A stretch of DNA of 64,000 nucleotides from Pseudomonadota bacterium (GTDB lineage Bacteria; Bdellovibrionota; Bdellovibrionia; Bdellovibrionales; Bdellovibrionaceae), in contig JBEGVH010000009.1 of NCBI GenBank assembly GCA_041178425.1, positions 128,001 through 192,000 of the forward strand, in the 5' to 3' direction. Shown in pieces: positions 6,844-33,708 of this stretch (position 1 is its first letter; each line of letters begins with the position of its first letter). The notes under the pieces are model-generated. The model saw only the letters and a list, made by a program, of their open reading frames with translations. It had not been told where the DNA came from and ran no database searches. A program made the translations under genes and the position numbers.

Positions 6844-7737
6844 ATGGGAATGATCTTTCTCCGGCAATTCTTTTTAGGAATAAGCAGTATCTTTTTGATA
6901 ACCACGTTCTCGTGGTTATCGACTTCATTTGCTGAAACTCCTCGAATTATTCAAAACTTCACTTCTGATGGCTGTTCAGTTTACAAATCGCTCTCACACG
7001 CTAATTGGGAGTTTTGTTGTGTTGCACATGATTTTGCGTACTGGAAAGGCGGCACACAAGCCGAAAAAAGAATGGCCGATTTAAAATTTCATCAATGCCT
7101 CAAAGATCGTAATGCCACCGATGTTGAATTGGAAACTTGGTTTACTGCAGTCTATGAATTTGGTGACGATCGCTGGGGAAGTGGCTGGGTACCAAAACAC
7201 AAACCCACCTTTACTGAGTTAACACTGCTCGAAAAACAAACGGTGCGGTTAAAAATAAAATCGATGGAAAGGGAGTGTACCGATCTTTCGGAGGAAACTC
7301 TTTGCGGCAACGAAAAAAGCAAACCTTCAAAAAACAAATCTCAATGTATCAAAACAATAAGAGTTCCCCTTCTTGAAGATTATGACTCCCTCGAAAAATG
7401 CACTCACGGCATCGTTAGAACTGTTGAGCTTAATCCACCGAATGACCCTAAAAATAAAATCAAGTCTATTAAGTCTTTGTCTTGTTACAAAATTCAAAAA
7501 AAAGACGACTCCAGCAAAACGGAACACACTCTTATATTTTCGCCTGAGTGCGAGGACGGCTATTTTGTTTTTGAGGATCGAAAGGGCGCAACCCAAGCTC
7601 CTTTTTTTGTTTTACAAGGATTTGGCTCTTGCAAGGACAAAATCAAACCGCAAAAGAGCTGTGTCGACCGAACCAATCTTCGCTACGAATACTTTGTTCC
7701 GGAGGATTTAAGCCCTTCGAAAAGCGGTCAACGCTAG
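6844..7737 (+). CDS. Secreted protein with N-terminal phospholipase A2-like domain and Cys-rich C-terminal region
   Basis: Signal peptide; FTSDGCS...CCVAHDFAYW...ADLKFHQCL resembles the PLA2 CCxxHDxxY / AD..F..C pattern. Confidence 0.55.
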   Translation: MGMIFLRQFFLGISSIFLITTFSWLSTSFAETPRIIQNFTSDGCSVYKSLSHANWEFCCVAHDFAYWKGGTQAEKRMADLKFHQCLKDRNATDVELETWFTAVYEFGDDRWGSGWVPKHKPTFTELTLLEKQTVRLKIKSMERECTDLSEETLCGNEKSKPSKNKSQCIKTIRVPLLEDYDSLEKCTHGIVRTVELNPPNDPKNKIKSIKSLSCYKIQKKDDSSKTEHTLIFSPECEDGYFVFEDRKGATQAPFFVLQGFGSCKDKIKPQKSCVDRTNLRYEYFVPEDLSPSKSGQR

Positions 7738-7846
7738 ACTCTCCAGCTGGCCTAGTACTTTCTCCACTGAACATGATTGATGATCTTCATCGTTGAACAC
7801 TTTTCGCCTACTATGTTAGGAGTTAAGGTTAAACCTGGAGAGCCCT

Positions 7847-8404
7847 ATGTTTGAAATCGTATGGAAATCTTTTCTTCTCGTTACCGCCACCGAAATGGGT
7901 GATAAAACGCAGTTACTCGCTTTGGTACTCACGGCTCGCTTTCGTAAACCTTGGGTCATTATGGCGGGAATCCTGGTTGCAACTATTTTTAATCATGGGT
8001 TGGCCGCTTTCGCCGGACAATGGGTCTCTCAGTCTCTATCTCCATCCGTCTTGAAGTGGGTCTTAGCCGCAAGCTTTTTTGGATTCGCGTTTTGGGTTCT
8101 CATTCCCGACAAAGACGATGAAAAAGTGCACTCCTCAACGGCTAGCGCCTTCTTTGTAACATTGGTGTCATTCTTTTTTGCGGAGATGGGAGACAAAACC
8201 CAGTTGTCCACCGTGGCTCTCGCTGCTCGATTCGGTGACATTGCATGGGTGACACTCGGAACTACGCTTGGAATGTTGGTGGCTGATGGGCTGGCCGTTT
8301 TTCTTGGCGAAAGAATTACGAAAGTTATTTCCATGAAGTGGATGCGAAGAGTGACGAGCATACTCTTTTTACTTTTCGGCCTTTTAATTCTGGTAGCTCA
8401 ATAA
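7847..8404 (+). CDS. TMEM165/GDT1 (UPF0016) family Mn2+/Ca2+ transporter
   Basis: Two EMGDKTQL signature motifs; hydrophobic helices. Confidence 0.95.
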   Translation: MFEIVWKSFLLVTATEMGDKTQLLALVLTARFRKPWVIMAGILVATIFNHGLAAFAGQWVSQSLSPSVLKWVLAASFFGFAFWVLIPDKDDEKVHSSTASAFFVTLVSFFFAEMGDKTQLSTVALAARFGDIAWVTLGTTLGMLVADGLAVFLGERITKVISMKWMRRVTSILFLLFGLLILVAQ

Positions 8405-18135: not shown

Positions 18136-19383
18136 ATGAATGACGTGTTTTGGAAAACCAAATTTCCTGAGGTTTATCAGTCAGTCCAGGCTTTACCTGA
18201 GGCCCAAGCCCGAGATCCCCAGGAATGGACTCAGTTGGCCATTGAGAGCAGTCTTTTAAGCTCGGAGGACTACCTCCCGGTAGCTCAAAATTATTATTCC
18301 CTAGCGGTTTTAAATGATCGTTTTTTCACAGAACAATTTACGACACTGGTCTATGAAAAATACAAATCTGAGTTCAATTGGAGCTCAACGGCAGTGCCTT
18401 TTGCTGAATGGGATGGCGTTGTTTTTGTCGCCTGCCTAGATCCCCACCAGGTTCCCTCGAATCTAGAAACCGTTTACCGGCCGATATTAGCCTCCTACGA
18501 AGGCCTTACATGGGCCTGGAATCGATTGCACCAACAGCAAACAGACCTCGAAGAAACAAAGTTCGCTGAAACGGAACGCACTTCTCCCGCTCCGAAAACG
18601 CCACCTCCGCCTCCGCCGGCAGCAGATTCCTTAGCCACATTTACACCGCCACCAACCGTATCATCTGGGATCCAATCAACACAAAATCTGTTTGAACTCG
18701 TTGATACTCCAAGTGAGGCAACCTCCGAAGAGGAATTGCTCAGCTCGGAACCGCAGCCAGAGGCAGAATTTGAAATGCCTGAAGGGCTTTCGTTTGGACT
18801 TGCACCAGCACCAAGCACACCACCGCCTCCTCCACCTCAGGCTCCCCCGGCACCACCCAAGCGGCAAGTGGCACCACCGCCTTCGCCTAGAAATGATTTG
18901 AGAGATTTTGAAAGAACGGCGGCCCAGCAATTAAATATTAAAATCAATCCTGATCAGGCCATCGAAGAAGAACTCATGCTATGTTTTGCAAAAGCTTTTC
19001 AAAACTACAGAAACTTAATGATTCTGAAAGTACATGGTGATCAAGCAATTCCTTTTCGGTGGGATCCCAGCTACCGACCACCAAAGTCTGTAGAGCCCGT
19101 TAACCTTAGTAAACCAAGCGTATTTAGAATTGTATCAAAAACTCAAAAACCTTTTCACGGACCCGTCGTCCTCAACGACACCAATAAGGCTTTTTTTGCG
19201 GCCTGGTTCGGCGGCCTTCAACCGGGATTCCTAACGATTATTCCCCTCTTTTTTGATGGAGAAATGGCAGGAATGATTTTAGCGGCAGCCGATCAAATGC
19301 CTGACTCTAAGGGAAGCCTGAATTTGATGCAAACAACAGCGCAAAAGGTGGAGTCTACTTTTGGTGCGAGAATAGCCGTTTAA
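18136..19383 (+). CDS. Hypothetical protein: GspE/PilB-N-terminal-like domain, Pro/Glu-rich linker, GAF-like C-terminal domain
   Basis: AVPFAEWDGVVFVACLDP resembles T2SSE_N; poly-Pro tracts; IIPLFFDGEMAGMILA resembles the end of a GAF domain; domain calls are inference. Confidence 0.6.
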   Translation: MNDVFWKTKFPEVYQSVQALPEAQARDPQEWTQLAIESSLLSSEDYLPVAQNYYSLAVLNDRFFTEQFTTLVYEKYKSEFNWSSTAVPFAEWDGVVFVACLDPHQVPSNLETVYRPILASYEGLTWAWNRLHQQQTDLEETKFAETERTSPAPKTPPPPPPAADSLATFTPPPTVSSGIQSTQNLFELVDTPSEATSEEELLSSEPQPEAEFEMPEGLSFGLAPAPSTPPPPPPQAPPAPPKRQVAPPPSPRNDLRDFERTAAQQLNIKINPDQAIEEELMLCFAKAFQNYRNLMILKVHGDQAIPFRWDPSYRPPKSVEPVNLSKPSVFRIVSKTQKPFHGPVVLNDTNKAFFAAWFGGLQPGFLTIIPLFFDGEMAGMILAAADQMPDSKGSLNLMQTTAQKVESTFGARIAV

Positions 19384-20320: not shown

Positions 20321-21025
20321 TTAAGGATTATTCTTGTAAATCACCTCAGCATCGAGATCCTTCCACTTGCTTCCATCTTTTCGTTTTGGCGCAACTCGTC
20401 CAATCATACCCAACAATTCTTTACCGTCATTGCTAAATTTAAAAATAACTGGATCTACAAGGGCAGCGATCACAAAACTGGTTGGCTTGAACTTCAACAA
20501 GACAACATCTCTTCCATCGAGTTTTTCTTGCCCCACTTTGAAAAGAGAAAATCCTACCGTCTCCTGCCGATCCCAAACACCAAAACGAATATCAACAGTC
20601 TCGCCGGCCACAATTTTTTGCCATTGGGTGGCAACGTAGGGCGCGAGCGTGTGCCCGACCACGAAGTTTTCGGGAAACGTCTCTGTAGCTGCTTCTTTTT
20701 TGCTACCGTTGTCTTCAAAATTAAAGATCACTTTGCTTCCATCAACAACAATAGACCCTTTTCGACCCGTCTGGCGATGAGTAACGTCGTACCGTTTTAA
20801 CTTTGCCCCCTGACGCTCAGACGACTCTTCTACAGCCACTTGGCCACTTAAGTCGGAAAAATGAGCCGAAGCTTTCGTAACGCCAGACGAATCAGAAATT
20901 TCATTCTTAAAGTTATAAAGTAACTCTTTTCTATTTGAATCCTTTTTAAAGACTTGGCCGATCACCGTTTCGGCGTGAACCTGATTTGCAAGAGCAAAAA
21001 TAAAAATAACAGACATTAACTTCAT
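20321..21025 (-). CDS. Secreted beta-rich hypothetical protein
   Basis: Signal peptide MKLMSVIFIFALANQVHA; RBS GGAGG before ATG 21025. Confidence 0.75.
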   Translation of the reverse strand: MKLMSVIFIFALANQVHAETVIGQVFKKDSNRKELLYNFKNEISDSSGVTKASAHFSDLSGQVAVEESSERQGAKLKRYDVTHRQTGRKGSIVVDGSKVIFNFEDNGSKKEAATETFPENFVVGHTLAPYVATQWQKIVAGETVDIRFGVWDRQETVGFSLFKVGQEKLDGRDVVLLKFKPTSFVIAALVDPVIFKFSNDGKELLGMIGRVAPKRKDGSKWKDLDAEVIYKNNP

Positions 21026-21086
21026 GTAGGTTTCCTCCACTCATTTACGATAAACAACCAAGGAGGAAATTCAACCTTCTTTTTAC

Positions 21087-21584
21087 CTAGTCGTCCACTC
21101 TTTGTGGAATCACTTTTTTAGTAAAATCGTCTAGCTGCCGACTTTGTTCAAGCTGCTGATCACGATGTTGATTCCAATTCACATGATCAGGAACATCAAC
21201 GGTCTCCGTTGGTGCCGAGATGACCATGGGGGCATGAGTCTTTAACTTAGGCCGCCCTCCTTTTTTTGATTTCCAAACTTTTTGGGCTCTCATTTCCTCT
21301 GATCTAGAATCTTCTATCTCGGCACTCAAGTCGGTGTTTGTGCGAGGTATCTCACTAACAGGAACAGGGCGACCGGCAATCTCTCGCACCCCTTTTGTTT
21401 TTACCGGTTTCAACCGAACTGACATTTCATTGGGAACAGACGAAGGCCGAGTAAGCTTTTTAAACTCGGTTCCACCACCCCGACTAATTGATGAGCGACT
21501 CTGGCGCTCAGTCGACGAGAGTCCTTTCGCCATAACATTTGCACTCAAAAACATAACAAAAGCTAGGTAGAAAGATCTAATCAC
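21087..21584 (-). CDS. Secreted basic, low-complexity hypothetical protein
   Basis: Signal peptide ending ANVMA; RBS-like AGGAG/GGAG upstream. Confidence 0.65.
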   Translation of the reverse strand: MIRSFYLAFVMFLSANVMAKGLSSTERQSRSSISRGGGTEFKKLTRPSSVPNEMSVRLKPVKTKGVREIAGRPVPVSEIPRTNTDLSAEIEDSRSEEMRAQKVWKSKKGGRPKLKTHAPMVISAPTETVDVPDHVNWNQHRDQQLEQSRQLDDFTKKVIPQRVDD

Positions 21585-21743: not shown

Positions 21744-21770
21744 TAAAGTTTTTAACTTTTCGTCCGAAAA
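21744..21770 (+). promoter_or_regulatory. Putative sigma-28 promoter of the MotB/MotA/FHA operon
   Basis: TAAAGTTT -35 (extended consensus), 15-nt spacer after TAAA, TCCGAAAA -10. Confidence 0.6.
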
Positions 21771-21789
21771 AGAGACTAAGGGAAAATAT

Positions 21790-23208
21790 ATGAGCTTAAA
21801 CTACCAGCATGAAAAAAAGAAACATCAGGAAAACTTTTGGACTTCCTATGCTGACCTATACAGTACCCTCTTTACTATCTTTCTTTTTATTTACGTTGCT
21901 TCGACCCTTAAGCAAGGCACTAGAACTCTCGAACAGGTTCAAGATAAAAAATATTTAGTAAATCAAATTGAAGATCTAAAGCAGCAATTAAAGGTCTACG
22001 AAGCACTCAAAGACAACTACATGAAAAAAGAAGCGTCAGGAGAAGAAAGCGCTCTTTACGATGAACTCATAGGCAAGCTGGATCTATTGCAAGAAGAGGC
22101 TAAAAACGAAAAAGAAGCCCTTCGTCGAAAAGCGATGGAAAACGAGCGCAAAGAAAAAGCACTCAATAAATATCAACAGCTCATTCGGAATATGATCAAC
22201 TCGAATGTCATCGCTAAAACAAAAATTCAATATCGCAATGAATTAATATCAGAAAAAGAGACTTTGATAGAAAAGCAAAACACAGAAATCGCCACCTTAG
22301 ACGCCGACGTTGCTGCTAAACGAACTGAACTAGCCAGCAAAGAGCAACAGCTCAACCAAGTAAGCGAAGAGCTACGGCAAAAAGAACTTAAACTCACTGA
22401 AGCCAAGGGGCAATACGACCTTTCTCTCGCGGACGCTCGTCAGAAATTTCAAAACGAACTTAATTCGGCTCAAAATAGTTTTAACGAAGCCATAAACAAA
22501 GAACGACTGTCTGGAGCTGAAAGGGCTGCAAGAGAAAAATCGTTCCGCGACCAGATGAGCGCAAGAGAGAAAGCCTACGAAGGACAATTGGCCGCTCTTA
22601 AATCGAAATACGATAGCACTCAAGGTGAACTCCGAAAAGCCATCGATCAGATTAACACCCGAAAGAAACTCACTGACCAGATCAAAAATCGATTTGCTAA
22701 AAATGGAATTCAGATTGAAATAGATGAAAAATCTGGCGAGGTCGTGCTCGACTTTAAAGATAGCTATTTCGAAACTGGCAAAGCTATTTTAAAGACCGAA
22801 ATGATTGAAAACCTCAGACGATTTATACCCCTGTACACAGATGGGCTTTTCGAAGACGATGCCACCGCTAATAAAATTGCTTCTGTTGAAATCATCGGCT
22901 TTGCCTCACCTACCTACAAGGGAAAATACGTAGATCCATCAAGCCTAGAGGCGTCTAACCGTGATGCCGTCAATTACAATCTCGATTTAAGTTATGCGAG
23001 AGCCAAGGCTATATTTACGTATGTTGCCAATACCGATAAATTGCAGTTCAAAAACCAACAGCGGTTCATGGGCTTGGTAAAAGTCACAGGACGAAGTTTT
23101 CTCGCTCAAAAAACAGATGTTAATGGAGCGGCAGTGGATGATTTTTGCAAGGTCAATGACTGCAAAAAAGAGCAAAAGGTAATTATTAAATTTAATTTAA
23201 AGGATTAA
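21790..23208 (+). CDS. MotB/ZorB-like protein: TM with conserved Asp, long periplasmic coiled coil, OmpA-like peptidoglycan-binding domain
   Basis: FWTSYADLYSTLFTIFLFIYV (Asp22); about 260-aa heptad-rich region; C-terminal FETGKAIL..IIGFAS..YNLDLSYARAKAI. Confidence 0.8.
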   Translation: MSLNYQHEKKKHQENFWTSYADLYSTLFTIFLFIYVASTLKQGTRTLEQVQDKKYLVNQIEDLKQQLKVYEALKDNYMKKEASGEESALYDELIGKLDLLQEEAKNEKEALRRKAMENERKEKALNKYQQLIRNMINSNVIAKTKIQYRNELISEKETLIEKQNTEIATLDADVAAKRTELASKEQQLNQVSEELRQKELKLTEAKGQYDLSLADARQKFQNELNSAQNSFNEAINKERLSGAERAAREKSFRDQMSAREKAYEGQLAALKSKYDSTQGELRKAIDQINTRKKLTDQIKNRFAKNGIQIEIDEKSGEVVLDFKDSYFETGKAILKTEMIENLRRFIPLYTDGLFEDDATANKIASVEIIGFASPTYKGKYVDPSSLEASNRDAVNYNLDLSYARAKAIFTYVANTDKLQFKNQQRFMGLVKVTGRSFLAQKTDVNGAAVDDFCKVNDCKKEQKVIIKFNLKD

Positions 23209-23229
23209 TTCTCAATTAGGAGGAAGAAA

Positions 23230-24183
23230 ATGACAGCTGGAGTTGGCGCGGTGACGCCGGAATTAAGTCTCCTCGATATTTTGTTTAAGCTGATGTCGAT
23301 GGGCCTAATGGGATTCATGCTCACTGTTTTTATTGTCGGAGCTATTGCTCGCATCCTCATTTTCTACACCGTTAAAAGACACGAATGGTTCACCATTGAA
23401 TTTCTAAAGCGAATTCGATCGGCGATGGATGCAAGAAAAGATGACACTCCTTTTGGGTCTTTCTATGGCAATACACGCAAACTCTTAGAGAGAACTTACT
23501 ATGAGGTTTTCAAAGTTCGCTCGGTGATGAAACGTCGCCGTCCCGATCTCCTTATGGATCCAATGGATCGTTGGTTCCTTATTAAACAAGGCAGTGCGTG
23601 GCTCATCCATGAAGTCTTGCGTAACATTCGTTTTTTAAGACCTGGGATGCATCCAAAAATGCATGAACTGACGAGATCAATTATTCAGGCGAACCCCGCA
23701 TACAACCGAATTTTTGGAATTTTTCCTGTGGGGACCCTTACTGAAGTTACCAATCTCCTGCCTGGCCTTTTTGTTATCGGAGGTATTTTGGGAACCTTCC
23801 TCGGAATCAAAAATGCACTCCCTGAATTAGCAGCCCTGGATCTCGAAAATCCTGACGCAACAAAAACAGCAATCGCAAGTTTTCTGACAGCAATTACCTT
23901 TAAGATGAACTCTTCGATCTTTGGTATTCTTTACTCCGTCGCTTTCTCATTATTGAATTCATGGCTCGCCCCCGAGCGCGTTTTTGTCAACACGGTTGAC
24001 CTCTTTGAAAGCGGTTTAGATACCATTTGGAATCTTTCTGATCACACCGTCGGTCATTCAGCTCAACCTGATTTTGATGAAAACAAAGATCCAATGGAAG
24101 CTCTGGCTTCTGAATTTTTGAGGGATGAAATCGATCGGCAATCGGGAATTTTAACAAATAGGGGCCTTAATAAAGCTTCTTAA
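23230..24183 (+). CDS. MotA/TolQ/ExbB/ZorA-like ion-channel subunit
   Basis: N-terminal TM, cytoplasmic domain, then LPGLFVIGGILGTFLGI and FKMNSSIFGILYS helices typical of the MotA/ExbB/ZorA family; RBS AGGAGG. Confidence 0.78.
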   Translation: MTAGVGAVTPELSLLDILFKLMSMGLMGFMLTVFIVGAIARILIFYTVKRHEWFTIEFLKRIRSAMDARKDDTPFGSFYGNTRKLLERTYYEVFKVRSVMKRRRPDLLMDPMDRWFLIKQGSAWLIHEVLRNIRFLRPGMHPKMHELTRSIIQANPAYNRIFGIFPVGTLTEVTNLLPGLFVIGGILGTFLGIKNALPELAALDLENPDATKTAIASFLTAITFKMNSSIFGILYSVAFSLLNSWLAPERVFVNTVDLFESGLDTIWNLSDHTVGHSAQPDFDENKDPMEALASEFLRDEIDRQSGILTNRGLNKAS

Positions 24184-24215
24184 GCGGAAGCAAAAATTAG
24201 GTTATTGAGGAATGT

Positions 24216-26813
24216 ATGTTTAAAAGAAATCCACAATTCATCGTATACCTTAACAGTGATGGCAACCTACCGCCAATTTCTATCCACGAAAAAAAATTCG
24301 TGATTGGCAGAAAGCCTACTCATCCGGTCTCAATTCCTGATGCCAGCATTAGTAGGGATCACTTGGAAGTCATCGTTCAAGATGGCCAAATTTATGTCAT
24401 GGATCTTGAAACCTCCAATGGCACAAGAGTTGATGGAATACTCATTCCCGGAAATATTCCCACCCCGTATAGACCGGGCCAGAGCCTCTATCTAGGACAC
24501 TCAAATGTCTCAATAACCATCGAACTTTTCGAGGACCAAAAAGGAAAAACTAAATCGGCCCCAACTACACCAAGGGTCGCGGTCACCAACACAAGCCAAA
24601 CATTTGCTCAAGAGAAAAAAATCTATTCTCCACAGCCGGCAATGGTCACTCACCATCACCACGAAGAGGATGATCAGTCTCCTTCTGTTGCTCAATCGTC
24701 GAAAAAACCCGATGTAATCAAACAAAACACAAGAGGAATACAAACGGTCCAAACATCTCAATCAGCCCATCGAAATATTCCTCATGCTCCAGCCAACGAA
24801 CCGTCGTCGGCAGCCCCTCATCACAACGAAGCGACGTCCCCCTTGGGTGCTCAGAAGCCCTCTCAAGAACTTAAATCACAGGAGCTACCTCCCAACGATC
24901 TAGAAGCGCTTAAGCAGTCGGTTGCCGTCCTCATGGTTCAAATCGATCACCTTAAGGCACAGGTCATCAAACATCAAACCGACAAGATCGCGACCGAAGC
25001 CCTCTACAAGCAAGAGAGCACGCGCCTCGAAAAAATTCAAGAAGAGCTCCGAAGCGAAGAACACAAACAAAGAACAATTCGCCAAGACCTTGAAATCAAA
25101 CAAAACTTACTAAAAGAAACTGAAGAAAAGCATAAAATGCTAGTTCTTTCGAATCAGTCGCTGGTTGAAGACACAAAAGCGGCTCTCGAAAAAGCACGCT
25201 CCCGCGAAGTAGAGTTGAATGTTCTCATTGAACAAGCACGGAAAGACCATCAAGAAGCCATTGACTTTGCAAAAAATCATAGAGCCGATGCCGAATCTTA
25301 TTCAACGCAGATGCGCACCGATGCCGAGCGCTATTCGAATCAGCTAAGAACAGAAGCTGAGGTTTATGCCAAAGACACTCGCGAAGAAGCCGAGAAGTAC
25401 TCTAAGAGTGTTCGAGATGAAGCTGAAACCTATTCGAAAACCACCAGAGAAGAGGCTGATGAATGGGCCACAAGACTTCGCAGTTCAACTGACGCTGAGG
25501 TTCGCAAAAAGATTGATTCTCTCCAAGAAGAAACCAACAAGATTTTTGCTGAACGTGAACAAACCTACTTAGAGCTCAAGGCGCGACAAGAGGCTCAGCT
25601 TGAGGATATTAAAAAAGCCGAATCCACAAAGATTAAGAACGTTCAAAATCTTGATGCTACATTTAAAAAACGCACCGAAGAGCTCGAAGAAACTTATCGC
25701 ACAAGAAAAGATCAAGTAGAACGGGATTTCTATGAAAAACGTGAGATCTTGGAGCGTGAACTCTCGCAACGACGCACAAGTATGGAACGGGAGCTACTCG
25801 AAAGACGTGAAGCACTTGAAAAAGAGGCCAACGATCGACGAAGCCAAATTGAGAGCGATGCTCAAGAACTTAGAAGCATTAGGGATCGCGAGTACAAAGA
25901 ACTGAAAACCCAACAGGATGCTTACTTGATTGATGTGAGAACACGAGAAGAAGACAGACTTAAAGGAATCGTTGACGAATCAAGAAAGGTCATTAAAGAG
26001 CAATTTAGTATTAAAAATGAAAACATCAACAAGGCTTTCAATGACTATTTTGAAGAACAAATTAAATTAGCCCCCACAGAGTCTCGAGAGCAGCTACCGA
26101 AACTCCAACAGGATTTGCAGAAAATTCTCCGCGAAGCTCTGACCGAGGAATTTAGCGGCGAAGACAAGCAAATTAAACAGTTGTTTGAGTATGATCCAAA
26201 ACATCAGAAAAAACATAAAACTTTCTGGAAGCGCTTTGCAGTAACCGCCGCCATTATCGTCACGGTGGGTGGCTACCTTGTCAATAATCCGAAACAGGTC
26301 ACTGAGAGCGCCATCACTTTTTCAGAAACGGTAAACACCATCGACCAGGAGAACAAAAAAGTACAAGCGGAGTACCTCAATAAAATTAAAGAGCAAAGTG
26401 TTTATCACCCCGACCAGACTCCTAGTTTTAAGGATACCTACACAGACAACGTTCTCTTCACCAGTCGCTACGTGGAGTTTGAAAATGATGAGCAGTACAA
26501 ATCCCAATGGATTGTGGCAATCAAAGAGTACCTTACTCAAGAAGCCAAGATTCAGGACGATAAAGCAGATGAGCTTATTTCTAAAGAAGGAGCGTTGATT
26601 AACTCGCTTTCTGGTGAAGTTGCCACCATCGATGCTCGACAAGCCGACAAAGGAATCGCTCGAATGCGCGAAATCGAAATACCTTTCATAGTTCTCTTGA
26701 CCCAATCAATGAACGATGAGATCAGAAAGGGCTATCAGGAGAAGAAACAAGCTTTTTATGAGCGCTTCATTAATGATCCCGCTAAATTTCGAGGTCCCGC
26801 CCAGAGCAAATAA
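24216..26813 (+). CDS. FHA-domain, long coiled-coil, single-TM membrane protein
   Basis: FHA motifs IGR, SISRDH, DLETSNGT; disordered linker; about 430-aa coiled coil; TM FAVTAAIIVTVGGYLV (about 26235-26282); helical C-terminal domain. Confidence 0.85.
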   Translation: MFKRNPQFIVYLNSDGNLPPISIHEKKFVIGRKPTHPVSIPDASISRDHLEVIVQDGQIYVMDLETSNGTRVDGILIPGNIPTPYRPGQSLYLGHSNVSITIELFEDQKGKTKSAPTTPRVAVTNTSQTFAQEKKIYSPQPAMVTHHHHEEDDQSPSVAQSSKKPDVIKQNTRGIQTVQTSQSAHRNIPHAPANEPSSAAPHHNEATSPLGAQKPSQELKSQELPPNDLEALKQSVAVLMVQIDHLKAQVIKHQTDKIATEALYKQESTRLEKIQEELRSEEHKQRTIRQDLEIKQNLLKETEEKHKMLVLSNQSLVEDTKAALEKARSREVELNVLIEQARKDHQEAIDFAKNHRADAESYSTQMRTDAERYSNQLRTEAEVYAKDTREEAEKYSKSVRDEAETYSKTTREEADEWATRLRSSTDAEVRKKIDSLQEETNKIFAEREQTYLELKARQEAQLEDIKKAESTKIKNVQNLDATFKKRTEELEETYRTRKDQVERDFYEKREILERELSQRRTSMERELLERREALEKEANDRRSQIESDAQELRSIRDREYKELKTQQDAYLIDVRTREEDRLKGIVDESRKVIKEQFSIKNENINKAFNDYFEEQIKLAPTESREQLPKLQQDLQKILREALTEEFSGEDKQIKQLFEYDPKHQKKHKTFWKRFAVTAAIIVTVGGYLVNNPKQVTESAITFSETVNTIDQENKKVQAEYLNKIKEQSVYHPDQTPSFKDTYTDNVLFTSRYVEFENDEQYKSQWIVAIKEYLTQEAKIQDDKADELISKEGALINSLSGEVATIDARQADKGIARMREIEIPFIVLLTQSMNDEIRKGYQEKKQAFYERFINDPAKFRGPAQSK
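25290..25487 (+). repeat. Six tandem 11-aa (33-bp) hendecad repeats in the FHA protein
   Basis: AESYSTQMRTD AERYSNQLRTE AEVYAKDTREE AEKYSKSVRDE AETYSKTTREE ADEWATRLRSS. Confidence 0.85.
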
Positions 26814-26846: not shown

Positions 26847-27824
26847 ATGAAGGCTTTTGATATCAGCAAAAGCCTTCTTGTTTCTTTTAGCCCTTTTGAA
26901 GGGCGATGTTTCTTTCTTAGCTTTGAGAATTACGAAGACGATTTGAAATCCGAGCTAAATCTAAATAAAAAGTGTAAAATCATCAAAACGATGGGTCGAC
27001 TTTTTCTTGTCGAAGGATGGATCCGCCCGGCACTATGGGCTCAATCCCATTGGCTTCATCCCGAAGTAACTAACATAGCTTCTATCGGCGAAGCTGCCAA
27101 ATTTTTGAAATCAACTTTTCCGCGCTGGTCGCTCTTTTCTGTTGATGCCCATCGGCGATCCCAGTTAATTTGGGAGAAGCTCCCTAGAGTCACCTCTCCA
27201 CAAATAGAGTTTTTGCAGGATTGGAATCGTAAAGATCATGGAGCCTGGACACTCGAAGATTCCAACACTCTCTGGTATAGCACCCACGTGATTCCTGCCC
27301 TTCCCATCGGAGAATTTAACTTTAAAGAGGATAAGGTGAACCCTCCATCGCGGGCCTACAATAAACTCTGGGAGCTATTCACCCTCCATGGATACAGACC
27401 AAACAAAGGGGAAAAGGTCCTCGATATGGGAAGTTGCCCCGGTGGTTGGACTTGGGTTCTTCAAGGAGTTGGTTGCCAAGTGATAAGCGTCGACAAAGCT
27501 CCAATCGATCCTAAAATCGAATCTCTTCCGCGAGTAAGGTACCTAAAAAGAGACGCTTTTGCCCTGGATCCAAAAGATGTCGGTCCGATTGACTGTTTTT
27601 TTTCAGACATTATTTGTTATCCAGAAAAGCTCCTAGAACTTGTTCAAAAATGGAGACTCTCTGGCTTCTGCCATCGGTTTGTCTGCACCATCAAATTCCG
27701 GGGAAAAACTGATTTCGAGACTCTGCAAAAATTTGCGGATATTCCAAGCTCCAAACTCATTCATCTCTCGGTCAACAAACACGAAGTCACTTGGATTTGT
27801 GGTTTTGACAATAAAGAAAACTAG
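26847..27824 (+). CDS. FtsJ/RlmM-like SAM-dependent RNA methyltransferase
   Basis: PSRAYNKLWE, LDMGSCPGGWT, SVDKA, SDII, K-D-K-E-type tetrad with HEVT. Confidence 0.85.
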   Translation: MKAFDISKSLLVSFSPFEGRCFFLSFENYEDDLKSELNLNKKCKIIKTMGRLFLVEGWIRPALWAQSHWLHPEVTNIASIGEAAKFLKSTFPRWSLFSVDAHRRSQLIWEKLPRVTSPQIEFLQDWNRKDHGAWTLEDSNTLWYSTHVIPALPIGEFNFKEDKVNPPSRAYNKLWELFTLHGYRPNKGEKVLDMGSCPGGWTWVLQGVGCQVISVDKAPIDPKIESLPRVRYLKRDAFALDPKDVGPIDCFFSDIICYPEKLLELVQKWRLSGFCHRFVCTIKFRGKTDFETLQKFADIPSSKLIHLSVNKHEVTWICGFDNKEN

Positions 27825-30543: not shown

Positions 30544-31740
30544 ATGCGCCGACAAACCAGCAGCACTCTCAACATGACCTTAGCCCTCATCACAAGTTTG
30601 GCCGCTCTTGCTGTTCATTTTTATCTCACTAAGCATTTTCATGAACTTCACTTAGGTCTGTCATCAGGGTCAGCGGCTTGCAATATCAATAAAACATTTA
30701 ACTGCGACGCCGTCTCTGCCTCAAACTTTTCATCCTTAGGCGGTATTCCCATTGCACTTTGGGGACTGACCACGCAAATTGTTCTCCTTATTTTAACTCT
30801 TACTTTTGTCTTAGGTCTTTCGTCGAAGAAAGACCTCGTTGGTCGTTGCGCCGCCTACCTCAGTGCTTTTATTGCTGTAGCCTCCATTGTTATGGGCGCT
30901 ATCAGCCTTGCGTTTTTGCAAGCGTACTGTCTCTTTTGCCTTTTCGCCTACGCTCTGAGTTTTGTTAATTTTTATGCGTTATGGAATCTCAATGATAGAG
31001 TGAACTTCAACAATTTGGCGAAAGACCTTAAAGACGCTGCATCTGATTTTAAGTGGATAGGAATTTTAACAGCAGGTATCGTGCCCCTCACGTTTCTGTT
31101 GAATAGCATGATTCTCGATAATTACGGAGGATCTCTCATAAAGGATGCTGCAGAATCATCCTTTTACGGATGGCAGGGTAATCCTGATAATAATTTCTCA
31201 GAAGAGGGTCTTAGCAAGGGACCAGCAGCCAATGCTCGAATGACCATCGTGGAATTCGCAGATTTTCTTTGTCCTCATTGTAAGCATGCTTATCCTAGCT
31301 TGAAGGTTTTTGCTGATTCGCACCCTGACGTTCGAGTGATCTACAAACTTTTTCCTCTGGATGGAAACTGTAATGCAGCAACCGAAATGCCTAAAGGAGA
31401 TGGCACTCGCTGTCTTTTGGCCAAGACGGCATATTGTGCAGAAAAATTAGGTCAAAAAGGCCTAGCCGTCTACGAGGCTATTTTTAATAAGCAAGAGGAG
31501 TTTCACGGTGCAGGTAATGCTGCCAATCTCGTAAAAACAATCGTCGAAGACAATGGTCTCGATAATAATAGGATGGAAGAATGCCGAAATAGCGAAGAAA
31601 CACACAATAAGATTCTACAACAGTCACAAGAGGGACTTTCGGCAAAGATCGAAGGCACACCAACCATCTTTGTAAACGGCAAACACCTGTCACGCGGGCA
31701 ACTACTTCCTGTACTACAAAGGGTTTATAATTCTCTCTAA
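30544..31740 (+). CDS. VKOR-DsbA (thioredoxin) fusion protein
   Basis: Loop Cys pair CNINKTFNC, membrane CLFC, DsbA EFADFLCPHC and cis-Pro GTPT. Confidence 0.92.
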   Translation: MRRQTSSTLNMTLALITSLAALAVHFYLTKHFHELHLGLSSGSAACNINKTFNCDAVSASNFSSLGGIPIALWGLTTQIVLLILTLTFVLGLSSKKDLVGRCAAYLSAFIAVASIVMGAISLAFLQAYCLFCLFAYALSFVNFYALWNLNDRVNFNNLAKDLKDAASDFKWIGILTAGIVPLTFLLNSMILDNYGGSLIKDAAESSFYGWQGNPDNNFSEEGLSKGPAANARMTIVEFADFLCPHCKHAYPSLKVFADSHPDVRVIYKLFPLDGNCNAATEMPKGDGTRCLLAKTAYCAEKLGQKGLAVYEAIFNKQEEFHGAGNAANLVKTIVEDNGLDNNRMEECRNSEETHNKILQQSQEGLSAKIEGTPTIFVNGKHLSRGQLLPVLQRVYNSL

Positions 31741-32500: not shown

Positions 32501-32529
32501 TCGTGACCGTTTTTTCAAGGAGTGAAACT

Positions 32530-33708
32530 ATGGAACGTCGATTAATGTTAGCAAAAAAATATCAACATCTTTCAGGCTCTGAAAGCTTGGAAAATTCATT
32601 TGATTTAAATGAAGATAATCCGAACTTAACGAAGCTTCCCACGGCTAAAGTAAAGTCGGGCGCCATCGAGAGTCTACTCTCTCAGAACGAAGATCTCTCC
32701 GCTCGACTAAAAGTTTTGCTGCGTCGATTGGCAAGCATCGAAGAAGAAAATCTAAAACTGACCCAAGAACATCGCGAAATGAAACATCAAGTGACAGGGC
32801 TTGCAGATCAAGCCTCTGTTTACAGGGAAAAAGAACATACTTGGCGCGAAAGGACTATTACTGCCGAGGAGGCCCTCGACATGCAGCAGTCGGAACTTCG
32901 CCAAAAAGAAGTCGAATTTGCTAAGCTCCGAGCTCAAGAATGGGAAACGCGAGAGCACCTTCAGAGTCAAATGCAAAAAACTGAACGCTCTTTCCTTCGC
33001 CTACTGCGGTATCGCGCCCGAGTGAGAAACTGGGGCCATCCAGCACTCAAGCGACTTCAGAATCTACTTGCCGAAAAAGAACAGCGCATCGAGCAATTCA
33101 AAAGAGAATTACAGAATACTGAAATTCAGAGTCAAAACTTAATTCACAAAAATCTTGAACAGGTTCGCAAAGGTCGCGAGGCCGTACGAGCCATTGAAGA
33201 AGAGAAACTTCAAATTGTTGCTCAGTTTGAACAGCAACGAGACGACCTTAAAGCGGAGATACTAACTCTTAATGAAACAACTGTTGAATTGCGCAAAAAG
33301 GCTTCGCTGCTCGATCGTAGCTTGGAACGACAAGATTATTTAGAAAACCGCCTCATTTTTGCGGAACGAGAAAATCAGGATTTACGCGAACGCTACAATC
33401 AGGAATTCAATCAGGTTCAAGTTCAAATGCACGATTGGCGAACCAAGGCTCAAAAACTCGAGGCCGAGAACGAATACCTCGCGAAAGCCAAAGCGGAATT
33501 CGAGGGGCAGTACCATCGCACCCGTGAAGTGGCTAGTCGCCTAGAGGAGCAAATGGACGCTCTACGTATTTTATGGAAAGAAAAAGTACATGAAAACGAG
33601 CGGCTTCGTAATAATTTGCAGGCTGTTGACTCGATCAATTCGGAGCTCTCACTAAAAATCAATGAGCTCAGTGACTTTAATCTCGCAAACATGCCGGAGC
33701 CGATCTGA
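32530..33708 (+). CDS. Cytoplasmic all-coiled-coil protein
   Basis: Continuous E/K/Q/L/R heptad-rich sequence; RBS AAGGAG before ATG 32530; no TM or signal. Confidence 0.8.
   Translation: MERRLMLAKKYQHLSGSESLENSFDLNEDNPNLTKLPTAKVKSGAIESLLSQNEDLSARLKVLLRRLASIEEENLKLTQEHREMKHQVTGLADQASVYREKEHTWRERTITAEEALDMQQSELRQKEVEFAKLRAQEWETREHLQSQMQKTERSFLRLLRYRARVRNWGHPALKRLQNLLAEKEQRIEQFKRELQNTEIQSQNLIHKNLEQVRKGREAVRAIEEEKLQIVAQFEQQRDDLKAEILTLNETTVELRKKASLLDRSLERQDYLENRLIFAERENQDLRERYNQEFNQVQVQMHDWRTKAQKLEAENEYLAKAKAEFEGQYHRTREVASRLEEQMDALRILWKEKVHENERLRNNLQAVDSINSELSLKINELSDFNLANMPEPI

Follow-up and report, generated by a model that had tools for sequence, protein, structure and literature searches.

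A three-gene locus of Bdellovibrionota predicted to encode a ZorAB-related motor with an FHA-rod-membrane partner

The locus and its conservation

What kind of machine would be built from a wall-anchored membrane protein, a channel-like subunit and a rod protein with an FHA domain, and what would it serve? The question is raised by three adjacent genes in a stretch of 64,000 nucleotides (nt) of a Bdellovibrionaceae genome (contig JBEGVH010000009.1, positions 128,001 to 192,000), the whole of which is called the window here. The genes are named B, A and C in their order on the + strand. Gene B (21790-23208; open reading frame, ORF, of 472 amino acids, aa) encodes a ZorB-like subunit, gene A (23230-24183; 317 aa) a ZorA-like channel subunit and gene C (24216-26813; 865 aa) an FHA-rod-transmembrane (TM) protein; they are the orthologues of Bd1167, Bd1168 and Bd1169, respectively, of Bdellovibrio bacteriovorus. 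An initial annotation, made from the letters of the sequence, had proposed that they form a new ion-driven envelope motor, and the three co-oriented genes with gaps of 21 nt (B-A) and 32 nt (A-C) that it described are confirmed by the ORF coordinates.

Presence was counted in 61 genomes, the source genome and 60 relatives. A occurs as a single copy in 41 of them and B in the identical 41, while the periplasmic domain of C is found in 40 of these 41 and not in any of the remaining 20; the single miss concerns a genome of 77% completeness in which C is cut off by the contig end. Gene order was followed in 103 distinct A loci, drawn from 40 relatives and, out of 362 matches, from the best 80. The order B-A-C is kept in 93 of them, six reach a contig end and three have another or an unrecognised gene after A; B was miscalled by the ORF filter in one locus, and two further loci had no A call. 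The median gaps of the family are 12 nt (B-A) and 19 nt (A-C), and the flanks are variable, with no flanking family present in more than four of 40 loci. B, A and C form one unit that is kept or lost together, as their proposed joint function had implied.

All the named matches of A belong to Bdellovibrionota, save four differently labelled assembled genomes that nest among Bdellovibrionota in the tree. Phylum-wide, matches at E <=0.001 were obtained in 111 of 251 genomes, weak ones to other motors included, and neither 72,556 plasmids nor 50,697 phages yielded a match to the module. The genomes without it are smaller (median 2.95 Mb) than those that have it (3.61 Mb). The tree is a quick version with midpoint rooting and contains no ZorA outgroups, so that the direction of descent cannot be read from it.

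Subunits A and B

The A protein shows three hydrophobic helices (26-44, 175-193 and 229-247), a cytoplasmic domain of 130 residues between the first and the second, and 50 residues past Trp267, without a long tail. It carries the motifs GILGTFLG and SSIFG, in line with the channel helices of the initial annotation. No Pfam family matched A, which is also absent from the nine PF01618 matches of its genome; PF28082 (ZorA-like_t1) is present in some of its relatives. Among the models of NCBIfam and PADLOC, ZorA alone matched A and ZorB was the best motor model for B, in both cases far under the cut-off (NCBIfam scores of 38 versus 500 and 31 versus 400). Profile searches of the Protein Data Bank (PDB) returned six matches to A at E<0.001, all of them ZorA (best 5.8e-8) and none MotA, and the two top matches to B were ZorB. 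With the fold model of A (pLDDT 82), ZorA took ranks 1-5 in Foldseek (E 0.005-0.016) and ranks 1-3 in VIA-align (Z 11.4, rmsd 3.9, 208 residues aligned), ahead of ExbB (Z 9.7) and TolQ (Z 9.1).

The B protein has a short N-terminus, a TM helix (17-41) in which Asp22 forms part of a WTSYAD motif, a coiled-coil stalk (about 45-300) and an OmpA-like peptidoglycan-binding domain (about 301-472) with an invariant cysteine pair, Cys453/Cys458. Its Pfam matches, MotB_plug (E 4e-5; 23.5 bits, the cut-off being 24) and OmpA (E 0.003), lie under the cut-offs. The TM aspartate, the OmpA-like domain and the coiled coil of about 260 aa had all been noted before, and the 256 residues from 45 to 300 prove to be free of proline. 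Stalks of the family follow a 3.5-residue (heptad) repeat and are 271-422 residues long (91 sequences). If straight, the stalk of B would measure about 38 nm, against a membrane-to-wall distance of about 9 nm in E. coli.

The ion path of ZorAB consists of Asp, Thr and Ser residues (PMC11946911; PMC11890865). Asp22 of B is invariant (73/73), and residues Pro136, Thr147, Ser184, Asp217 and Tyr220 of ZorA align to Pro178, Thr189, Ser229, Asp264 and Trp267 of A, which are conserved in 73 of 73 sequences with the exception of Asp264 (64/73). Two glutamates of A, 87 and 92, are likewise invariant and may echo the calcium site of ZorA, although their spacing differs. Because of the homology to ZorAB and the invariance of the ion-path residues, the module probably encodes a proton-driven 5:2 motor. 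By profile comparison, and for A by fold as well, both subunits sit on the ZorA/ZorB branch and not with MotAB, which sharpens the earlier suggestion of a non-defence relative of Zorya.

Gene C

The layout that had been predicted for C was recovered in full: an FHA domain (29-94; E 2e-10), a Pro-rich linker (106-225), a charged helical rod of 430 residues (226-655) with five 11-residue repeats at 356-406, a TM helix (about 674-692), and a stalk helix followed by a helical periplasmic domain (about 730-858). Members of the family range from 654 to 1440 residues. The phosphothreonine pocket of the FHA domain comprises G31-R32, S46-x-x-H49 and N68-G69, and all its elements (GR, SxxH, NG) are intact in 69 of 78 full-length C proteins. 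Ser/Thr kinase domains occur in 61 of 61 genomes, three kinases having been found in the source genome by Pfam search where a motif scan had missed them. Given the intact pocket and the ubiquity of the kinases, gating by phosphorylation through the FHA domain is plausible.

The rods of C have a repeat of 3.6-3.7 residues, against 3.5 in the stalk of B, and repeats of this kind favour a right-handed bundle. The tail of ZorA is itself a right-handed bundle (PMC11946911). In its repeat the C rod resembles that tail, a likeness without homology.

The periplasmic domain is all-helical and confidently predicted (pLDDT >95 in most blocks). No Pfam family is common to more than two of 73 members, and neither a Foldseek match nor a usable Atlas match was obtained. 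A weak globin-like echo (seven chains, Z 5.6-7.1, rmsd about 4, 95-112 residues aligned) had no backing from Foldseek or Pfam and no conserved His, and a match to Sec63 (E 0.003) was rejected because it covers the TM/helix only. There is no conserved Ser/His (SHLS) in the TM region, nor a TonB-like fold in the C-terminal domain. When two B fragments (14-185) were modelled together with C (660-860), the predicted complex scored 0.01, a 'no answer' that we count neither way, and the covariation among A, B and C (73 paired rows, effective number 24) gave top scores no higher than those of shuffled pairings, even for A-B.

Variation of the module among its relatives

A divergent clade of paralogues (E about 1e-35) is present in two families of the phylum (L151-L155 and L169, with A at about 6900-7900). 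Its B proteins have 704-1758 aa, its A proteins are tail-less, the genes are tightly packed, and the Asp, Thr and Ser are kept. In six of the seven loci viewed, A is followed by a protein of 152-164 aa; the three that were scanned are stand-alone cNMP-binding domains. At one locus (L158:6298-9584), B and A are followed by a response-regulator receiver protein, in a genome (G149) that holds three paralogous modules. The third slot would therefore hold a signalling module in these relatives too, while six further loci have no recognisable partner.

Several A relatives depart from the common form. P0143, P0168, P0171, P0208, P0211 and P0212 bear long acidic Pro-rich C-terminal extensions, probably disordered, and P0220, P0239, P0274 and P0280 have lost the threonine of GTF. 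More distant A-like proteins of 563-654 aa are encoded at L187:1020-2708 and L188:43-2576, with no PADLOC match at 1e-6; in L188, a 187-aa gene lies 5' of the A-like gene and has a B-like helix seemingly without the aspartate.

Orthologues in Bdellovibrio bacteriovorus

The corresponding locus of B. bacteriovorus Bd5 (L140) equals Bd1167-1170 of strain HD100 in lengths, gaps, gene order, annotation and promoter sequence; A has 301 aa, the gaps are 12 and 0 nt and the next gene encodes 206 aa. Bd1167, Bd1168 and Bd1169 are annotated as 'microtubule binding', 'hypothetical' and a large 'Ala/Glu-rich' protein. They form a three-gene operon with one start site, and their transcripts are 26-, 55- and 36-fold higher in the attack phase, as given in table columns without visible sub-headers (PMC3627812); such expression accords with the attack-phase use that the initial annotation had suggested. 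Upon prey entry Bd1167, termed crescentin-like in that report, and Bd1168 drop to about 0.6 (PMC2797640). At the protein level, the three are represented by 41, 16 and 52 peptides, respectively, with the lowest amounts at 3-4 h inside the prey and recovery by 5-6 h, before exit (PMC12546842).

In a transposon-insertion sequencing (Tn-seq) study of a host-independent strain, Bd1167-1169 showed W values of 1.5-2.0 in four prey conditions, namely planktonic and biofilm E. coli and V. cholerae (PMC6561027). These values could be mistaken for a fitness gain, a reading that was dropped since 90 other rows of the study (from 2 of 68 table parts, VCPL column, 'ND' rows excluded) had a median W of 1.86; predation genes were below 0.1. 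Such neutral values imply that the three genes are dispensable for axenic growth and for pooled laboratory predation, and they argue against an essential role in invasion or division. The idea that the module is needed for either process is weakened by them and by the 20 of 61 genomes that lack it. Pooled Tn-seq can, however, overlook small, surface-specific or redundant effects. The work of Fenton in 2010 on ccrp may discuss Bd1167, so that an earlier knockout may exist.

No description of Bd1167-1169 as a motor was found in the freely readable literature on Bdellovibrio Zorya, FHA/MotA/MotB/OmpA, crescentin/Ccrp, polar proteomes and orphan ZorAB. The module is absent from the text and two supplements of the RomR/DivIVA proximity paper, it is not treated in the accessible parts of PMC12505986, PMC12204202, PMC8938487, PMC11025332 and PMC13689555, and a review of September 2026 makes no mention of Bd116x. 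We conclude that the module is real and uncharacterised.

Possible function

The reading that we tentatively favour is that A and B make up a ZorAB-type 5:2 proton motor and that C turns it into a signal-gated sensor of envelope strain in attack-phase cells. Five A subunits would surround two B subunits in the inner membrane, and the OmpA-like tips of B would bind the wall of the cell itself. At rest the stalk of B would be slack or folded and the channel shut; a membrane moving off the wall, through osmotic shock, squeezing or puncture, would pull the stalk taut and open the channel, and A would then rotate around B. C would substitute for the missing ZorA tail, with its periplasmic domain and TM helix coupled to the motor and its 11-residue-repeat rod extending into the cytoplasm, where the FHA domain would bind a phosphothreonine partner by which the complex is placed or gated. 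The motor would serve the survival of free-living cells, a conditional function that would fit both the neutral fitness in the laboratory and the loss of the module in smaller genomes.

Several points weigh against this reading. The A5B2 assembly, the ion flow, the rotation and the wall binding are predictions, and we infer the geometry of the stalk as well as the tie to envelope stress. No output or effector is linked to the module by the 91 flanking proteins of 29 loci. The wall-binding domain of ZorB joins its TM helix without a linker (PMC11946911), so the trigger geometry of ZorB cannot be transferred unchanged. The TM helix of C (674-692) is weakly hydrophobic and poorly conserved, hydropathy finding a helix in 55 of 78 sequences. 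In the fold comparison the gap in Z between ZorA and ExbB/TolQ is below 2, and a Z of 11 is modest for a helical protein. Among the distant relatives of A, some are without the Thr or the Gly motif, which means that not every relative need conduct ions. A broader version of the idea, which we consider rather doubtful, is that a Zorya-type rotary motor serves as a developmental envelope strain gauge and not in immunity: the rod would have moved from A to C, a B tether of 40-60 nm would set the opening distance, and the third gene would supply an exchangeable signal input, be it phosphothreonine, a cyclic nucleotide or a receiver domain. If this were true, the module could be a non-defence form ancestral to Zorya or a domesticated product of it.

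Other explanations account for part of the same evidence. The attack-phase transcript and the rise of the proteins before exit would also suit a redundant polar or surface force generator, in which the motor would exert a pull on the wall or set C in motion, aiding gliding, prey contact, entry or exit on surfaces, like AglRQS with GltG. The FHA-rod-TM-periplasmic layout of C is like that of a force transducer, and its rod, with the 3.6-3.7-type repeat that is found in the polar scaffolds Scy, FilP and DivIVA, would itself be a polar scaffold. Unidentified attack-phase polar structures do exist, with no link to Bd1167-1169 in the accessible part of their description (10.1101/2022.06.13.496000). 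Yet the insertions are neutral on both prey species, planktonic and in biofilm, all 61 genomes, the 20 that lack the module among them, have AgmX/PglI-type gliding domains, C has no TonB-like C-terminal domain, and the wall anchor of B would make it a stator and not a mobile arm of the ExbD type. On balance we regard such a generator as somewhat unlikely. A domesticated anti-phage system, sensing envelope puncture like ZorAB and acting by ion leakage or by way of effectors whose genes lie elsewhere, seems unlikely as well. The nearest relatives are ZorA and ZorB, the genes are neutral without phage, the proteins are made in the free-living and presumably phage-exposed stage, and the distribution is patchy in the phylum (111/251 genomes), with paralogues in one group and a tree that mixes some family labels. 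However, the long ZorA tail that Zorya defence requires (PMC11946911) is absent from the A of the module. None of zorC/D, zorE and zorF/G is found among the 91 flanking proteins, which come from 29 loci, and the seven PADLOC matches of these proteins are all housekeeping look-alikes, without a defence component, in agreement with the lack of adjacent ZorC/D/E that the initial annotation had noted. A ZorC domain occurs in three of 61 genomes, only one of which has the module, on another contig. The module is, moreover, single-copy in two-thirds of the relatives, without plasmid or phage match, and its GC content is 42.6%, against 44.3% for the genome.

It is improbable that the module is a passive periplasmic or cytoskeletal tether, as the label 'crescentin-like' for Bd1167 might suggest, holding the membrane to the wall with no ion flow: no change is seen at Asp22, Thr189 or Ser229 while stalk lengths range from 271 to 422 residues, and B, being a membrane protein that carries a domain for wall binding, is no cytoplasmic filament. 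An additional flagellar stator is very improbable. The MotB_plug and OmpA matches and the sigma-28-like promoter would speak for it, but one single-contig, 99%-complete genome (G039) keeps the operon intact, together with FliA, with no match for FlgI, FliG or flagellin, and FlgI is present in 16 of the 20 genomes that lack the module. Furthermore, A has no MotA profile match and stands outside the nine PF01618 matches of the source genome.

Promoter, terminator and neighbouring genes

The sigma-28 (FliA)-like promoter named in the initial annotation, TAAA-N15-TCCGAAAA (21744-21770, + strand), ends 19 nt 5' of the start codon of B and stands as a candidate. It scores 10/12 against the sigma-28 consensus, the same layout precedes B in three congeners (L031-L033), scores of at least 10/12 occur in 14 of 81 orthologous upstream regions versus 1.6% of shuffles, and FliA is encoded in the source genome. 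On the other side, the strict pattern occurs 15 times genome-wide versus 8-11 in three shuffles, barely above chance, and the start site of the HD100 operon was scored as 'no FliA site' (PMC3627812). G039 and a further single-contig genome of the order (G044) have FliA with no FlgI, FliG or flagellin match, sigma-28 being kept without flagella. Just 3' of C, an 11-bp hairpin with T runs on both strands (26849-26877) overlaps the start of the next ORF; this pattern match is possibly the terminator that closes the three-gene unit.

Upstream in the window, a 415-aa protein (18136-19383, +) matches MshEN weakly (E 0.027) and has a long linker rich in proline and no ATPase domain. It is followed by two divergently transcribed hypothetical genes (20321-21040, - and 21087-21584, -). 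Both products have signal-peptide-like starts, neither matches Pfam, and the 239-aa protein of this pair adjoins B in the four congeners. Downstream, a membrane protein (30544-31740, +) is fused to a thioredoxin-like domain with CxxC and looks like VKOR-DsbA by eye, and a coiled-coil protein of 401 aa (32503-33708, +) is encoded 5' of an LptD-like gene.

Comparison with known motors

With MotAB/PomAB the module shares the TM aspartate and the wall-binding OmpA-like domain of B, as well as the predicted 5:2 design. However, A has three TM helices, whereas MotA has four and a torque-generating domain, and the very long, rigid stalk of B replaces plug and linker. The ExbBD-TonB, TolQR-TolA and AglRQS-GltG systems likewise have a three-TM A subunit of related fold (Z 9.1-9.7) and a third, single-pass partner, which in the case of GltG carries an FHA domain. 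They differ from the module in that its B has an OmpA-like anchor and its C lacks the SHLS motif and a TonB-like domain and has a cytoplasmic rod; no tol-pal, TonB receptor or glt genes are conserved beside it.

The ZorA-ZorB pairs of Zorya (8QYD, E. coli type I; 8VVN, Shewanella type I; 8VVI, Sulfuricurvum type II) are the top relatives of A and B in sequence and fold. Common to both are the three-TM A with Pro, Thr and Ser at the same aligned positions, and a B with the TM aspartate, a similar N-terminus and an OmpA-like domain with cysteines. In contrast to Zorya, the gene order B-A is reversed, A has 40-174 residues past the TM3 extension (median 52 in 88 sequences) and not a tail of hundreds, B has a stalk of 271-422 residues where ZorB has none, and the third gene encodes an FHA-rod-TM protein in place of ZorC/D/E/F/G. 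A type I-like Zorya locus is present in one genome of the set (G035, L190:1951-7879), with zorD placed first in the order ZorD, A, B, ZorC and on a separate contig from the module; no match between A and its ZorA-like gene was obtained with hhalign. In the module of that genome (L057:7010-10660), A and C are each in pieces, by decay or assembly error. Judged by its short A tail, reversed order, lack of effectors and B stalk, the module is no Zorya system. The absence of SHLS and the flagellum-less genome that keeps the operon add to the view, already held in the initial annotation, that it fits neither flagellar stators, Ton/Tol, AglRQS nor a Zorya subtype. Its description gives new annotations to three proteins that a genetically tractable model predator makes abundantly in its attack phase and, if the stalk sets the trigger distance, bears on how ZorAB-type motors are switched on. 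The module would be a motor of the ZorAB branch without defence effectors, and its architecture, so far undescribed, would enlarge the small group of 5:2 ion motors.

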